A DNA stretch of 64,000 bases from an uncultured Elusimicrobia bacterium (GCA_964484135.1 CAZAEL010000002.1:4700-68699), one strand, 5' to 3'; shown: positions 15,893-54,326, counted from the first letter of the stretch. Numbers and translations are program-made. Notes: generated by a model not told the origin, from the sequence alone.

Positions 15893-17578
15893 ATGTCCGG
15901 GGCCCTCTGGGGGCGTGAAAACGCCCAAGGGGGGAGGTTTGACGTACAAAAGGGAGGGTTGTTCGCCGTGACCGCCGAGACCAAAGCCGCCTCCATCCAG
16001 GAAGTCCCCTCCGGCGCGTCGGGCTTTTTTCCGGACCCTTCGGTCCGCCTCGTCAACGCCTTTTCCCAGCCCTTCAACAACGCGGTGGCCGCGGCCCGCA
16101 CCTGCTACTCCCCCAAGGTCGTCTATCCCGAAGACGTGGACCGCGATGAGAAGTCCCGGATCCAGCGGGACGCCATCGCGGCCAGCACGTACCAGGCCGG
16201 CCACCACACCACCATCCAGCACGCCACCTTCCAGTTTGTTTTGGAAAACGTGTCGCGCCAGTTCATCTGGTCCTTCCTCCACAGCCATCCTTTTTACAAC
16301 AGCGAGCAGGTCAGCCAGCGGTACGTGGCCGTGAAGCCCGAGAACGTGGCGGTCCCGCCCTTGGCGGGGAAGGCCCTGTCCCTGTACCGGGAGACCGTGG
16401 CCCTGCAGATGTCCGCGTACGGCCGTTTGATCGAACTCCTCGCCCCGGCGGTGGAGAAGGAATACAAGCGGATCTTCCCTTTGCGGGACCCGCGGGACAA
16501 AAAATGGGCCCGCTTCGTCCAGCGCAAGGCCCAGGAGGTGGCCCGGTACGTCCTGCCCGTGGCCACCCACGCCCATCTGTACCACACCGTCAGCGGCCTC
16601 ACCCTGCACCGGTACCACCGCCTCTGCCGAATTTTCGACGCGCCTCTGGAGCAGAAGACCGTGGTGGACAAGATGGTGGAGGAGGTCCGCAAGGCGGACC
16701 CGCTGTTCGCGGACAGCCTGGAAGACCCGCTGCGCCTGGAATCCACGCCCGAATATGAGCTCTTCGAAAAGTTCCATCGCAGGGCCGCCTCCCCGGCCCG
16801 GGAATTTTTGCGGGAGTTCGACGCCTCCCTGGAGGGAAAATCCTCCAAACTGGTGGATTACAAGGCCCGCGGCGAAGAGGTGTTGGCCCAGGCGGTGCGG
16901 ACCGTCATGGGCGTGCCCCGGGCGCGCCTTTCCGACGACGAGGCCATCGAGCGGGTCATGAGCCCGGCCCAAAACCCGTACTTCAGCGAGGCCCTCAACC
17001 TGACCACCCACGGCAAACTGACGCGGGCGATGGTGCACATGCACTTCACCTTCCGCAAGAAAATTTCCCACACGGCCGACAGCCAGGACCAGCGCCACCG
17101 CATGACGCCCGCGTCCCGGCCGGTGCTGTCCGGACACTTCGTGCCGGAGAAGCCGGACTACGTCGTGCCGGCCCTGGTCTGGGAAACGCCGGAGGCGTTG
17201 GAGTTCTATGAAGAGACCATGGAAACGGTTTGGAAAAACATCCGCGCCCTGCTGAACATGGGCGTTTCCCAGGAGTTCGCGCTCTATCTTTTGCCGAACG
17301 CGGTGAGCGTCCGGTTCGAGGAGTCCGGCGACCTCCTCAACTTCCACCACAAGTGGAGCAAGCGCCTCTGCTACACCGCCCAGGAAGAGATTTGGAAAAC
17401 CTCCCAGGAAGAACTCCTGCAGGTGGCCCAGGTGGCGCCCCGGGTGGCCCGACACATCGGCGCGCCCTGCTTTTTGCGGTCCGTGTCTCAGAGGCGACCC
17501 TTCTGTCCCGAGGGGGACCGGTTTTGCGGCGTCATCGTCTGGAAACTTCCCGTGGAAAACTACGAAAGGTTGATCTAA
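15893..17578 (+). CDS. thyX: FAD-dependent thymidylate synthase ThyX, tandem-duplicated (two ThyX domains in one 561-aa chain); alternative GTG start at 15968 with a better RBS (GGGAGGG)
   Basis: Domain 1 has SQRYV and AR-YVLP...RLCRI motifs. Domain 2 has [14 protein letters not shown] (RHR motif) and LP-NA...[10 protein letters not shown]. Confidence 0.75.
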
Positions 17579-17580
17579 AC

Positions 17581-18870
17581 ATGTCTACTTTGGTCGTTGT
17601 GGGCTCCCAATGGGGAGACGAGGGCAAGGGCAAGATCGTGCACCTGCTCGGCAAGAAGGCGGACTACATCGTCCGTTATCAGGGCGGCAACAACGCCGGC
17701 CACACCGTGGTGTTCGACGGCAAGCATTTCGTCCTGCACCAGATTCCGTCCGGCATCCTCCAGCCGGGGCGCAAGTGCGTCATCGGCAACGGCGTGGTCA
17801 TGGACCCGCTGGCCCTCAGGGAGGAGGCGCGGTTCCTGGAATCCCGCCGCATCCGGGTCAAGGGGCGGCTCTTCGTGAGCGCCTGGGCCCACCTCATCCT
17901 CCCTTATCACAAGTACTTGGACGCTTTGCGGGAGTCGGGCACGGACAAGATCGGCACCACCAAGCGGGGCATCGGGCCCGCGTACTCCGACAAGGTGGGC
18001 CGCACCGGCATCCGGCTGGCGGATTACATGGAGCCGGACCTGTTCCGGGAGCTTTTGGAGCGGAACCTCCAGGAAAAAGCGCCGCTCCTCAAAAAGGTGG
18101 TGTCCCTGTCCAAGCTCCGCCATGAAACTTTGAAAGATTACAACGGCCTGCGGAATTTCCTGAGGCCCTTCGTGGCCGACACCCCGGCTCTCCTGCAAAA
18201 GGCCCTGGCCAACGGGGCCAACGTGCTCTTCGAGGGCGCCCAGGGCGCGCTCCTGGACGTGGACTTCGGCACGTACCCCTTCGTCACCTCCTCCAACCCC
18301 TCGGCGGGCGCGGCCTGCGTGGGCGCGGGGGTGGGCCCCAGCGCCATCGACGAGGTGCTGGGCGTGGTCAAGGCCTACACCACCCGCGTGGGCGAAGGGC
18401 CCTTCCCCACGGAGCTGAAGGACGCGCTGGGACATTTCCTGCGGGAGCGGGGCCAGGAGTTCGGCGCCACCACGGGCCGCCCCCGCCGCTGCGGCTGGTT
18501 CGACGCGGTGGTGGTGCGCCACGCGGTTCGGGTGAACGGCATCACGCGGCTGGCCCTCACCAAGCTGGACGTGCTGGAGGGGGTGGACCCCATCCGTGTC
18601 TGCGTGGGGTACCGGTTGAACGGCAGGATGGTGCGGGACTTCCCCGCGTCCCGCTGGGACCAGGCCCGGGCCAAGCCCGTGTACAAGGATCTGCCCGGCT
18701 TCTCCGGACCGGTCAAGGGCATCACCCGGCACAAGGACCTGCCGGCCGCGGCCCGGTCCTACGTGAAATTCCTGGAAAAAGAGACGGGCGCGCCCATGTC
18801 GCTCATCTCCATGGGCCGCAGCCGCGAGGAAACCATCCTTTTGGACAAAAAATTCAGGTGGATCCCCTGA
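17581..18870 (+). CDS. purA: Adenylosuccinate synthetase
   Basis: N-terminus [25 protein letters not shown] and [10 protein letters not shown] motifs; full length 429 aa. Confidence 0.92.
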
Positions 18871-52918: not shown

Positions 52919-52971
52919 AGGACGGAACGTTTATGAACGCGAGACGGATTTTTTTCTTCAGGCGGGTGACA

Positions 52972-53040
52972 GATGATCCCATCACCTGCCTCGACTGCGG
53001 AAGCAGGCGTTTGGCCTGCAGGCAGGTGATGGGATGATCC
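52972..53040 (+). repeat. Palindromic bridging element copy 3 (GATGATCCCATCACCTGCC...GGCAGGTGATGGGATGATCC) with a different inner hairpin (GCAGGC-GTTTG-GCCTGC)
   Basis: Outer arms match copies 1 and 2; the right arm supplies the purB ATG (53034). The small ORF 52933..53034 reads through the element and ends with a TGA overlapping the purB ATG. Confidence 0.65.
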
Positions 53041-54326
53041 CCCGGTACACCCGCGAGGGCATGTCGCGCATCTGGACCGACCAGGCCCGCTGGGAGGCCA
53101 TCCTGGAGGTGGAGCTGCTGACCGCCGAGGCCCTGGCCCGCCGGGGGCTGGCGGACCGGCGCGCGGTCAAGACTCTGCGCCAAAAGGCCCGCGTGGACGT
53201 GCGCCGCATCTTGCAGATCGAGCGGACCGTCAAGCACGACGTCATCGCCTTCCTGACCCAGATCGAGGAACGGGTGGGGCCGGCGGCCAAGGCCCTGCAC
53301 CAGGGCCTCACCTCTTCGGACGTTTTGGACACGGCCCTGGCGGTCCAGATCAAGCGGGCCAACGCCCTCCTGATCGCCGGCCTCAAGGAGCTGATGGCCG
53401 TGACCCGGCGGCTGGCCCTGCGGCACCAGGACACCCTCATGATGGGCCGCACCCACGGCATCCACGCCGAGCCCATCACCTTCGGCTTCAAGGTGGCCGG
53501 GTGGCACGCGGAGCTGCGCCGCAACCTGGAGCGGCTGGAGGCCGCGGGCCGCGACGCGGCCGCGGGCAAGCTGTCCGGCGCGGTGGGGACGTTCGCCCAT
53601 CTGGACCCTTCCATCGAGGCGGAGGTCTGCCGCCGATTGGGGCTGAGCCCCGAGCCCGCCTCCACCCAGGTGGTGCCCCGGGACCGGCACGCCCACTACA
53701 TGCAGGCCCTGGCCCTGGCCGGCGCCGGGCTGGAGCGCGTGGCCACGGAACTGCGCCATCTCCAGCGCACCGAAGTTTTGGAGGCGGAGGAACCGTTCAC
53801 CAAGGGGCAGAAGGGCTCCAGCGCCATGCCGCACAAGCGCAACCCCATCGCCTCGGAGAACATCTGCGGCCTGGCCCGCTTGCTGCGGGGCTACGCCTTG
53901 TCGGCCCTGGAGAACGTGGCCCTCTGGCACGAGCGGGACATCTCCCACTCCTCGGTGGAGCGGGTGGCCCTGCCGGACGCCACCCTCCTCCTGGATTTCA
54001 TGATCCACCGGCTCAAGGGGGTGCTGGCGGACCTGCGGGTCTATCCGGACCGCATGCGGGCCAACATGGAGAAGACCTCGGAGATCGTCTGCTCCCAGCG
54101 CCTCGTCATCGCGCTGACCCGGCGGGGCCTGCCCAAACAAAAGGCGTACGAGCTGGTCCAGCGCCACGCGCAGGAGGCCTGGACAACGGGCCGCAGCTTC
54201 CGGCAGATGGCCGCCGCGGACCCGGACATCCGCTCGCGCCTGTCCGGGCCGGGCCTGGCCGCCTGTTTCGACCTGAAGCCTTTCGTGCGGAACGTCCGCC
54301 GGGTGGTGCGGCGGGCCCTGGGGTGA
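53034..54326 (+). CDS. purB: Adenylosuccinate lyase
   Basis: Fumarate-lyase signature GSSAMPHKRNP; 430 aa. Confidence 0.92.
   Translation: MIPRYTREGMSRIWTDQARWEAILEVELLTAEALARRGLADRRAVKTLRQKARVDVRRILQIERTVKHDVIAFLTQIEERVGPAAKALHQGLTSSDVLDTALAVQIKRANALLIAGLKELMAVTRRLALRHQDTLMMGRTHGIHAEPITFGFKVAGWHAELRRNLERLEAAGRDAAAGKLSGAVGTFAHLDPSIEAEVCRRLGLSPEPASTQVVPRDRHAHYMQALALAGAGLERVATELRHLQRTEVLEAEEPFTKGQKGSSAMPHKRNPIASENICGLARLLRGYALSALENVALWHERDISHSSVERVALPDATLLLDFMIHRLKGVLADLRVYPDRMRANMEKTSEIVCSQRLVIALTRRGLPKQKAYELVQRHAQEAWTTGRSFRQMAAADPDIRSRLSGPGLAACFDLKPFVRNVRRVVRRALG

Follow-up and report, generated by a model that had tools for sequence, protein, structure and literature searches.

How much of nucleotide synthesis can a bacterium keep in one run of genes, and what holds such a run together? 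In Escherichia coli the pur genes are scattered, and Bacillus subtilis has separate pur and pyr operons (purEKBCSQLFMNHD and pyrR-P-B-C-AA-AB-K-D-F-E), with purA, guaA, guaB and the nrd and thy genes elsewhere. We have analysed a 64-kb stretch of DNA, called the window below, from a high-GC (65%) Elusimicrobiota bacterium (GCA_964484135.1, CAZAEL010000002.1:4700-68699), in which 24 nucleotide-metabolism genes lie on the + strand within 38,434 bp (15893-54326), in an array of 34 same-strand open reading frames (ORFs). The array reads thyX-purA-carA..carB..nrdR-nrdJ-dcd-guaB3-guaA-purCSLQFD-pyrRBCD-pyrFE-purMNB, and three of its junctions carry a hairpin of a family that we describe as miniature inverted-repeat transposable elements (MITEs). 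The original prediction, made from the sequence of the window, had seen here a supercluster of genes for purine, pyrimidine and deoxynucleotide synthesis. Its gene list is fully recovered: all 24 genes are identified on the + strand by NCBIfam and Pfam matches above curated cut-offs, mostly by a wide margin, and the end coordinates that it gave are exactly the thyX start and the purB stop. Twenty-four pathway genes on one strand within 38.4 kb, in an order repeated in independent assemblies, are far beyond chance.

Conservation of the array in Elusimicrobiota

We have drawn relatives of the GuaB3 protein from GTDB contigs with one genome per species, mapped the window proteins onto 80 loci of 21 kb, and extended the comparison outward from ThyX and PurM homologues. 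The nearest GuaB3 relatives are found in Elusimicrobiota metagenome-assembled genomes (MAGs), namely RA.bin80 (86%), RA.bin118 (84%) and the 'Lyne' MAG (72%). Close relatives share nrdR-nrdJ-dcd-(GGDEF)-guaB3-guaA-purC-S-L-Q-F-D-pyrR, parts of the array are recognisable in many distant Elusimicrobiota, and the full order given above is found in independent assemblies at 60–86% protein identity. At loci labelled Elusimicrobiota, dcd lies just 5' of guaB3 in 23 of 27 cases and guaA just 3' of it in 21 of 25, while these proportions drop to 0/37 and 6/31 for other labels (Omnitrophota, 'Planctomycetia' and unlabelled loci).

Individual relatives show how the order is kept and where it breaks. The JGI contig Ga0071082_100677, with proteins 70–83% identical to those of the window, carries thyX-purA-carA-x-carB-x-nrdR-nrdJ and, further on, purF-purD-pyrR-B-C-D-x-x-pyrF-x-pyrE-purM-purN-purB, the distance from thyX to purB being ~38 kb. 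RA.bin118 has thyX-purA-carA, four other genes and carB, followed by nrdR to pyrR, all on one contig. RA.bin80 runs from nrdR to purN with purK-purE placed between purF and purD; relatives thus hold purE and purK inside the cluster, and in another one (L036) purK-purE occupy the slot between guaB3 and guaA. A 2.72-Mb genome at 57–62% identity has kept purL-Q-F-D-pyrR-B-C-pyrK-pyrD-F-E-purM-N-B, with thyX alone 160 kb away, and the 215-kb contig Ga0494960_00000013 has kept thyX-purA-carA-carB and pyrR to purB, with dnaG-rpoD-tRNA ahead of pyrR. The flanks of the array are wholly different between relatives, while the array itself persists to ~60% protein identity.

Judged by gene order, the array is made of three modules: A, thyX-purA-carAB; B, nrdRJ-dcd-guaB3A-purCSLQF(EK)D; and C, pyrRBCD-FE-purMN(B). 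On the same grounds, it is an inherited, deep, modular and lineage-wide trait of non-gut Elusimicrobiota, not a peculiarity of one genome. The co-localisation had originally been called unusual. This holds in so far as it goes well beyond the textbook layout of model bacteria, but it does not hold as a mark of this genome, since the arrangement recurs across the lineage in independent assemblies; with the order recurring in related genomes under ordinary NrdR control (see below) and no new regulator found, its novelty is lowered, as the prediction itself had allowed. Our search of the literature found no paper on an Elusimicrobia nucleotide cluster, and as a finding the array is apparently undescribed.

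The window resembles the B. subtilis pur and pyr operons in its long coupled polycistronic blocks, in the contiguity of purC-purS-pur(L/Q)-purF, and in pyrR heading pyrB-pyrC. It differs from them in fusing both pathways, the pyr block lying after purD and ahead of purM, and in adding thyX, purA, carAB, nrdR-nrdJ, dcd and guaB3-guaA. As to the gene set of a Bacillus-type pur operon, purC-S-L-Q-F-D are contiguous, but purM-N-B stand apart from them beyond the pyr block, and purE, purK and purH have not been found in the window. Overall, nearly the whole de novo programme, from PRPP and bicarbonate to AMP, GMP, UMP, dNDP and dTMP, has been kept co-directional over deep divergence. This makes the array useful for the study of supra-operon selection, for the annotation of Elusimicrobiota MAGs (GuaB3 as the working IMP dehydrogenase (IMPDH), the position of purE/K as a lineage marker), and as a set of loci for transcript mapping.

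Coupling within blocks and control between them

The overlapping stop and start codons noted in the original prediction are confirmed. After refinement of start codons, overlaps of 1 or 4 nt are found at at least nine junctions: purA/carA, nrdR/nrdJ (GTGA), hyp271/guaA (ATGA), purC/purS, purS/purL and purL/purQ (GTGA at all three), purQ/purF (TGATG), pyrB/pyrC (GTGA) and purN/Cys-ORF (ATGA), where hyp271 and the Cys-rich ORF are accessory genes. Such overlaps imply polycistronic, translationally coupled blocks. No insertion has been seen in the purC-purS-purL-purQ-purF block in any relative examined, and several gaps of 100–420 nt lie at block borders.

The 367-nt gap between carB and nrdR contains the best promoter-like site of the cluster, matching the consensus at 10 of 12 positions, together with two NrdR-like boxes, which form a 20-nt inverted pair (Table 1). 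The first box is located between the -35 and -10 hexamers and the second just 5' of the nrdR start. Scored against the consensus acaCwAtATaTwGtgt, the window boxes are degenerate, with 3–4 mismatches. In 11 of 14 genomes the region upstream of nrdR has a site with no more than four mismatches, compared with 42 of 1,411 background windows (3%), and within the cluster such sites are confined to this gap and one place inside carA. The layout of promoter plus boxes is also present in relatives, and the NrdR orthologue of one of them (L083) matches PF22811 and PF03477.

In the NrdR regulon, which Rodionov and Gelfand reportedly described in 2005, tandem NrdR boxes lie over nrd promoters. The window agrees with it in having an NrdR with Zn-ribbon and ATP-cone and boxes over the promoter of nrdR-nrdJ itself, and differs from it in that the boxes are degenerate, the operon is embedded in a larger array, and no boxes stand ahead of the other blocks. 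As far as these sites tell, NrdR control is ordinary autoregulation, limited to nrdR-nrdJ and whatever is read through from there.

No shared RNA element has come to light. Rfam gives no element in the cluster at the gathering score or at E ≤5, and only tRNAs in seven related loci at the gathering score; a purine riboswitch is found neither in the cluster nor in those loci. This sets the window apart from the B. subtilis operons, as neither a purine riboswitch nor a PyrR attenuator has been detected with Rfam; a PurR PurBox has not been met either, no search aimed at it having been made. The gene order pyrR-pyrB-pyrC-pyrD is that of a PyrR-attenuated pyr operon, without an RF00515 site (no match at E ≤5 in the cluster and none in relatives). 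The 100-nt leader between purD and pyrR does contain a suggestive GAGAGG hairpin, but its fold is no better than shuffled sequences (z = 0.44). Several relatives have no space for such a leader, as their pyrR overlaps its neighbours on both sides, purD and pyrB. A PyrR attenuator is therefore not supported. We have also tried intrinsic terminators as operon boundaries, and have rejected them as uninformative, their counts being equal to the shuffled expectation.

Variable slots between the blocks

Accessory genes sit solely at the borders of the tight blocks, and their contents vary between genomes. The split of carA from carB by about 4 kb, which had been noted before, measures 4,023 bp and holds five ORFs (Table 1). 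None of the five was seen in the equivalent slot of the relatives examined, which holds a 230-aa hypothetical protein (L083), a GT2, radical SAM and carbamoyltransferase set (L093) or a CarboxypepD_reg protein with a hypothetical one (L089); in L007 carA and carB are adjacent. The guaB3|guaA slot holds a DNA-methyltransferase-like ORF in L005 and the purK-purE pair mentioned above in L036, and the pyrD|pyrF slot of relatives holds a DUF1016/YhcG nuclease or a PIN pair. Slots empty in the window are filled elsewhere, namely thyX|purA by a DUF559 gene and purA|carA by an MNT/HepT pair, both in Ga0494960_00000013, and pyrE|purM by a zeta toxin in a relative. The sole accessory gene kept in its slot (dcd|guaB3) encodes the GGDEF-CBM48 protein, found at 62–68% identity in L004, L005 and L006. 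The Cys-rich ORF is absent in relatives, where purN and purB overlap or nearly so.

Two of these genes are presence/absence polymorphisms between strains at least 99.6% identical. Strain L002 (SRR25316602), which is 99.9% identical, has 144 bp in place of the hyp271 segment (window 34428-35263), and this short allele bears a long MITE-like hairpin. In strain L094 (DRR859891), 99.6–99.9% identical elsewhere, 103 bp stand where the window has the segment with the SGNH-like gene (48374-49673). The latter change also swaps the last pyrD codons and the first ~20 pyrF codons, which suggests exchange by homologous recombination in the flanks, with import from a diverged donor. The original reading of the accessory insertions as signs of recent rearrangement is thus borne out, both by their differences between relatives and by these two indels. 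It appears that essential operons tolerate cargo such as toxin-antitoxin pairs, a methyltransferase, nucleases and a TIR-like gene.

Some further observations concern the slots. In Ga0494960_00000013 (L089 and L090), an MNT/HepT pair (purA|carA), a PIN pair (pyrD|pyrF), a zeta toxin (pyrE|purM) and a DUF559 gene (thyX|purA) lie amid essential nucleotide genes, with AbiEii downstream. The methyltransferase-like ORF of L005 (11600-12826), which has an SPPF motif, forms one open frame with guaA, either by fusion or by a missed stop/start. The GGDEF-CBM48 gene stands directly 5' of the GMP branch; the substrate of the cyclase is GTP, and CBM48 is glycogen-binding. In addition, when L091 (1-2850) is compared with the window, the two sequences are identical only from the last bases of the tRNA to the right of purB (window position 56152), its 3' end, onwards, and upstream of this point L091 has a Multi_ubiq/Prok-E2/ThiF ubiquitin-like system in place of the purB-response-regulator region, which makes the tRNA a strain-variable breakpoint.

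Hairpins at three gene junctions

The motif GGCAGGTGRTGGG-ATG precedes purD, pyrB and purB and, by comparison of the strain alleles, also guaA in strain L002; the exact motif has no further occurrence in the window. At each of the first three places an inverted-repeat search shows a hairpin element of 58 or 59 nt (copies 1–3 in Table 1), which the original prediction had not mentioned. Copies 1 and 2 are homologous end to end, and the alignment of all three shows a mean column identity of 87%. The arms show compensatory changes among the copies, all copies are flanked TGA...TGA, and the predicted folds bury both an AGGTG(A/G)T sequence like a Shine-Dalgarno (SD) site and the ATG.

The frames across these hairpins are arranged in a particular way. 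The left ATG of copies 1 and 2 is the start of a mini-ORF of 21 codons that ends in a TGA overlapping the ATG of purD or pyrB; in copy 1 it spans from the ATGA of the purF stop to the ATGA of the purD start. At copy 3, a 40-codon frame runs from the ATG at 52915, which shares an ATGA with the stop of the Cys-rich ORF, through the hairpin to a TGA overlapping the purB ATG, giving the chain purN-ATGA-CysORF-ATGA-ORF40-ATGA-purB.

With a covariance model (CM), applied to ~0.7 Mb, the element is found in this species (window, L094 and L002) and not in ~0.65 Mb from relatives; one degenerate copy is present in another Elusimicrobiota MAG. At pyrR/pyrB, three of four relatives (L084, L088 and L090) have a 4-nt overlap, and the closest full relative also shows overlaps at purF/purD and purN/purB.

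There are other strong intergenic hairpins in the array, at three places (Table 1). They are unlike the MITE and have no Rfam match.

A family of miniature elements in metagenomes

Scanning JGI metagenome contigs for the exact pattern, we have obtained more than 120 loci among the matches listed, to which the counts in this section refer. The elements are 51–79 nt long, lie in contigs of 42–70% GC, and share an outer stem TCCCAYCACCTG...CAGGTGRTGGGA, which encloses two or three small GC hairpins whose sequence varies. The terminal inverted repeats are TCCCAYCACCTG / CAGGTGRTGGGA, and in the window the arms are 16–20 nt long and 88–100% complementary. Identical 3-nt flanks are observed for 72 of 102 copies, while 16.9 are expected and the maximum in 1,000 shuffles is 27; for independent sites the count is 60 of 86, and TGA clearly leads among the flanking triplets. 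The element is identified as a MITE by its terminal inverted repeats, the 3-bp duplication of the target, its many copies and its presence or absence between relatives, taken together.

The lengths of the copies depend on where they lie. By a junction copy we mean one where a long ORF ends at the left duplication and another long ORF begins at the rebuilt ATG; 19 independent copies of this kind have been compared with the 53 non-junction copies that have enough flank. Lengths ≡ 2 mod 3 make up 15/19 of the former and 6/53 of the latter, lengths ≡ 0 mod 3 make up 4/19 and 43/53, and lengths ≡ 1 mod 3 make up 0/19 and 4/53 (Fisher's exact p = 1.2e-7). The junction copies of class 2 have an open mini-ORF M-I-P-P/S-P-A...Q-V-V/M-G-stop, with differing interiors, and in those of class 0 the left ATG is in frame with the downstream gene. 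In addition, 29 copies lie inside frames that extend without a stop for 60 codons or more in either direction.

Copies on other contigs are found at purL|purQ (L171), at the stop codon of pyrF (L193) and 86 nt 5' of purB (L095). On some contigs (L123, L208, L176 and L134) at least five copies lie within 2.5 kb, or single housekeeping genes are bracketed; in L134, for instance, a kdsA-like gene has a copy on each side, both of the ATGA-junction type. Among the fetched loci, pairs of repeats 0.15–4 kb apart enclose housekeeping genes and no transposase.

Bacterial MITEs and palindromic repeats include Correia/NEMIS, ERIC and RUP, and the Rickettsia palindromic elements insert in frame into genes. 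The present family is like known MITEs in being short and non-coding, with terminal inverted repeats, target duplication and many copies, and in its predicted co-transcription with flanking genes; the excess of lengths ≡ 0 and the 29 in-frame copies recall the Rickettsia elements. It differs from known MITEs in the target, which is usually TGA, in the terminal A rebuilding ATGA, in the SD-like 3' repeat, and in the frame-keeping lengths at junctions. The literature that we have searched gave no description of such an element and none linking MITEs with translational coupling, and the repeat sequence was not met in a relevant context. The ATGA-regenerating MITE at three junctions is the most novel item here, and the array itself is moderately interesting.

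Proposed model and its alternatives

Based on the above analyses, we consider it likely that the array is a vertically inherited modular supra-operon, with an NrdR-controlled internal promoter, variable slots, and junction MITEs that preserve coupling. Its modules would be expressed as polycistronic messages, their boundaries being those predicted here, with translation handed on through the 1–4-nt stop/start overlaps. Internal promoters would lie between blocks, the NrdR-operated one of nrdR-nrdJ being the sole clearly recognisable one, so that deoxynucleotide supply would be under separate feedback control. The borders of the tight blocks would serve as permissive slots that gather different cargo in each lineage or strain.

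In this species only, the MITE would have entered three junctions at which the genes of relatives plainly overlap or nearly abut. Its insertion into ATGA would duplicate TGA, giving A-TGA-[TCCC...GGGA]-TGA, in which the left copy keeps the upstream stop, while the terminal A of the element and the following TG would rebuild the downstream ATG and hence the right-hand ATGA. The 3' inverted repeat would supply the SD-like AGGTG(A/G)T, and the hairpin would hide both this site and the ATG. A ribosome would then terminate, re-initiate on the relay mini-ORF, melt the hairpin by translating it, and re-initiate at the next gene; coupling would thereby survive the insertion. Hairpins that sequester SD sites in translational coupling occur in the MS2 coat-replicase pair and in ribosomal-protein operons. 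By analogy with these, the downstream SD and start are part of a stem, the 5' arm of which starts at the stop codon of the upstream gene, and upstream translation should open it; the present hairpin, with its putative coupling, differs in being delivered by a mobile element and repeated at several junctions. To the more specific claim, i.e., an undescribed, operon-adapted MITE family with a TGA target on either strand, ATGA regeneration, an SD-supplying 3' repeat, length-selected junction copies, and the overlap-rich nucleotide cluster as its preferred refuge, we would give even chances. If true, it would mean that the ends of a mobile element have been shaped to restore start, stop and ribosome-binding signals. 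It would also explain how selfish DNA can colonise tightly packed parts of a genome without polar effects, and synthetic operons would gain a compact, portable cassette for coupling between cistrons.

Several observations weigh against this picture. As for the array, gut-type Elusimicrobiaceae are without it (L008 and L009, with guaB3 alone), hence it is not universal in the phylum. The pathway is incomplete in the window, where purE, purK, purH, pyrG, pyrH, ndk and tmk are missing: tblastn has found neither purE nor purK in the window, and neither the window flanks nor the ~8 kb past the right edge, read from a near-identical contig and free of pur and pyr genes, showed anything similar to purH, pyrG, pyrH or a canonical guaB. 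The possibility raised originally, that purE, purK, purH, pyrG and pyrH lie just outside the window, has thus failed within ~8 kb of the right edge. The array has a pyrR without a detectable RNA target, and terminator-like sites are no commoner than in shuffles, so that read-through of the whole array is possible. As for the element, copy 3 is 58 nt long (≡ 1 mod 3) and does not abut the upstream gene, so its fit to the relay needs the 40-codon frame, whose translation is putative. The length classes might in part stem from subfamilies or from the lineages of the hosts instead of selection at each site, and no autonomous insertion sequence with the same ends is present among the fetched loci.

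It could be supposed that the whole 38 kb is a single operon, driven from a promoter 5' of thyX, which would yield purine, pyrimidine and dNTP synthesis in fixed proportion. The 34 ORFs on one strand, the many overlapping junctions, the promoter-like site 5' of thyX and the terminator-like sites not enriched over shuffles are all compatible with this. We regard it as highly improbable, however: one transcript for the whole array is unlikely because the conserved sigma-70-like promoter with NrdR boxes lies within it, in the carB-nrdR gap, and because relatives are broken at the same module borders, and gaps of 100–420 nt and unrelated, strain-variable genes stand between the blocks. Clustering without function, either as synteny frozen in a lineage of low rearrangement or as an artefact of assembly or binning, seems improbable to us too. 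The flanks differ completely while the array persists to ~60% protein identity, the order is repeated in NCBI, JGI, ENA and Logan assemblies, and GC and codon bias are uniform except for hyp271; such a view would gain from the lack of a shared regulator or RNA element across the array, from modules that are separable in some relatives, and from the fact that the compared genomes are all MAGs or metagenome contigs.

As to the hairpins, they might be cis-regulatory RNAs (a translational operator or an RNase III site) that tune purD, pyrB and purB, and not mobile DNA. We hold this to be rather unlikely, since target-site duplications are found at 60 of 86 independent copies, the orthologous junctions of relatives are without copies, unrelated housekeeping genes (kdsA-, moeA- and ybeY-like ORFs) have copies beside them, many copies lie in frame inside long ORFs, and the interior is variable across the family, with no Rfam match. 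What speaks for it is that the stems are very stable (-36 to -53 kcal/mol), with SD and ATG buried and with compensatory changes in the arms, that in ~72 kb of this species every copy is within the nucleotide cluster, that one copy comes directly after the gene of PyrR, an RNA-binding regulator, and that pur/pyr junctions of other contigs have copies as well. The mobile-element and the regulatory readings can be compatible, as a MITE is open to co-option.

GuaB3 and accessory proteins

GuaB3 of the window has 387 aa and is without the CBS pair (Bateman domain), while the catalytic Cys loop is retained. The pairing guaB3-guaA extends across Elusimicrobiota and some Omnitrophota. The CBS-less GuaB3 of cyanobacteria is an essential IMPDH (PMC13273366), whereas in the mycobacterial member of this family the active-site loop is missing and no activity is known (PMC9790621). 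The window protein resembles the former in belonging to TIGR01304, lacking the Bateman domain, keeping the Cys loop and having guaA as a partner, and differs from the latter in keeping the loop. Accordingly to its features, GuaB3 is probably the IMP dehydrogenase of the pathway encoded by the array.

Among the accessory products named in the original prediction, the VWA protein is confirmed by Pfam, the UV glycosylase by PF03013 and the GGDEF-CBM48 protein by its family matches, and the Cys-cluster protein corresponds to a secreted ORF of 139 aa with the sequence CCMDCCCG. The label of SGNH hydrolase finds no support at the family level, with weak sub-threshold matches. Genes for hyp341, a Flavin_Reduct protein, a DUF1801 protein and a 75-aa ORF are added to those named before. 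Eight accessory proteins gave no match to PADLOC defence models. The Cys-rich ORF has no family match either; another frame considered between purN and purB (52414-53037) is spurious, its GC by codon position being 0.72/0.65/0.58, compared with ~0.65/0.45/0.85 for true genes in the window.

The label DUF4062 for hyp271 fails in the letter, with no Pfam match even at E ≤10, and is right in spirit, since the predicted fold is TIR/NDT-like (NDT, nucleoside 2-deoxyribosyltransferase). The gene has 39% GC in a genome of 65%, GC and codon bias being uniform elsewhere in the array. No family, PDB-sequence or plasmid match was found for the protein, and its family is rare, with 29 members, none of which has a precomputed Pfam domain. 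An AlphaFold2 model (pLDDT 89.9) shows an N-terminal TIR/NDT/DNPH1-like domain and a winged helix. Foldseek matches include 9lmq (E = 9e-5), 2a0k and 8fz9, and cover TIR-STING, NDT, DNPH1 (TMt 0.67–0.72), BcmB and the SPARTA TIR; the motif S-x-W-x-x-x-E (S-x-W-x-N-Q-E) is invariant in the family. In the model, the fold is thus flavodoxin-like alpha/beta of the TIR or NDT kind, and hyp271 could be a defence or nucleotide-hydrolysing effector.

Gene list and flanks

The features of the array are collected in Table 1. The site 5' of thyX matches the promoter consensus at 9 of 12 positions and is probably the left-hand promoter of the array. ThyX is a long flavin-dependent thymidylate synthase of 561 aa with two Thy1 stretches, and homologues of ~520–560 aa are present in Elusimicrobia, Omnitrophica and Chlamydiae. 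The carA start may be GTG or ATG, overlapping the purA stop. PurS, with 154 aa, is about twice the usual length; Pfam covers the first ~70 residues, and the long form is kept in close relatives. For pyrD there is no canonical start near the onset of homology, the sole in-frame ATG/GTG/TTG being TTG 47210, with an 82-nt overlap with pyrC; the gene may start at a non-canonical codon or with an unusually long overlap.

Table 1 Features of the nucleotide gene array and its borders, in window positions
Feature	Position	Strand	Evidence and remarks
5,239-aa ORF	49-15768	+	left border
Promoter-like site TTGACC-17-TACACT	15795-15823	+	124-nt gap 5' of thyX; consensus match
thyX	15893-17578	+	TIGR02170 106.5 bits (cut-off 87.9); PF02511 187.5 bits, 2 stretches
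purA, adenylosuccinate synthase	17581-18870	+	NF002223 600 bits; 2-nt gap after thyX stop
carA, carbamoyl-phosphate synthase small subunit	18858/18870-20018	+	TIGR01368 495.6 bits; start GTG 18858 or ATG 18870
hyp341, secreted hypothetical	20032-21057	+	carA|carB slot
Flavin_Reduct protein	21089-21643	+	carA|carB slot
VWA protein	21674-23059	+	carA|carB slot; Pfam
Pyr_excise pyrimidine-dimer glycosylase	23239-23646	+	carA|carB slot; PF03013
DUF1801 protein	23600-24004	+	carA|carB slot
carB, carbamoyl-phosphate synthase large subunit	24042-27359	+	NF003671 1647 bits
nrdR promoter TTGACA-17-TAGACT	27582-27610	+	carB-nrdR gap
NrdR-like boxes	27585-27602 and 27694-27709	+	inverted pair
nrdR	27727-28248	+	TIGR00244 189.4 bits, full length
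nrdJ, class II B12-dependent ribonucleotide reductase	28245-30857	+	TIGR02504 666 bits; NF006417 879 bits
dcd, dCTP deaminase	30984-31541	+	TIGR02274 172.6 bits
Hairpin	31546-31614		dcd|GGDEF gap
GGDEF diguanylate cyclase with C-terminal CBM48	31637-32755	+	TIGR00254 168 bits, GlgB N-terminal-region matches; PF00990 and PF02922 on identical protein
Hairpin	32775-32847		GGDEF|guaB3; 19-nt arms, 89% complementary
guaB3, CBS-less IMPDH homologue	32868-34031	+	TIGR01304 440.7 bits (cut-off 342)
75-aa ORF	34196-34423	+	guaB3|guaA slot
hyp271	34451/34469-35266	+	guaB3|guaA slot; TIR/NDT-like fold and winged helix (predicted)
guaA, GMP synthase	35263-36795	+	NF000848 808 bits
purC	36854-37747	+	profile match
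purS	37744-38208	+	profile match
purL	38205-40652	+	profile match
purQ	40649-41440	+	profile match
purF	41440-42894	+	profile match
MITE copy 1, 59 nt	42895-42953	+	purF|purD; TGA-(TCCCACCACCTGCCT...AGGCAGGTGGTGGGA)-TGA; -49.7 kcal/mol; CM 98 bits
Copy 1 inverted repeat	42894-42954		16-nt arms, 100% complementary; spacer 29 nt
purD	42953-44257	+	TIGR00877 509 bits
pyrR, PyrR/UPRTase family	44358-44918	+	NF003549 211.5 bits (cut-off 138)
MITE copy 2, 59 nt	44919-44977	+	pyrR|pyrB; -35.6 kcal/mol; CM 91.5 bits
Copy 2 inverted repeat	44918-44978		16-nt arms, 88% complementary; spacer 29 nt
pyrB	44977-45966	+	profile match
pyrC	45963-47291	+	profile match
pyrD, quinone-type	47210/47297-48382	+	profile match; start uncertain
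Hairpin	48383-48535		pyrD|SGNH; predicted -81 kcal/mol over 153 nt
SGNH/GDSL-like ORF	48536-49609	+	pyrD|pyrF slot; weak sub-threshold matches
pyrF	49615-50301	+	profile match
pyrE	50303-50833	+	1-nt gap after pyrF
purM	50844-51812	+	10-nt gap after pyrE
purN	51903-52502	+	90-nt gap after purM
Cys-rich secreted ORF, 139 aa	52499-52918	+	frame analysis; same gene in L094
MITE copy 3, 58 nt	52977-53034	+	immediately 5' of purB; -53 kcal/mol; CM 86 bits
Copy 3 inverted repeat	52972-53039		20-nt arms, 95% complementary; spacer 28 nt
purB, adenylosuccinate lyase	53034-54326	+	PF00206 174.6 bits and PF10397
tRNA	56081-56153		right flank

The cumulative GC skew of the window is positive on the + strand. 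At the left border, a single ORF of 5,239 aa has its frame open from base 1; its first ~4,400 residues have no Pfam match, the gene is without tandem DNA repeats, and HEAT repeats at about residues 4,460–4,640 are the sole Pfam domains. The right flank contains genes for a response regulator, a tRNA, a T2SSE ATPase, a hybrid kinase, a TonB-dependent receptor and a Crp-like regulator.

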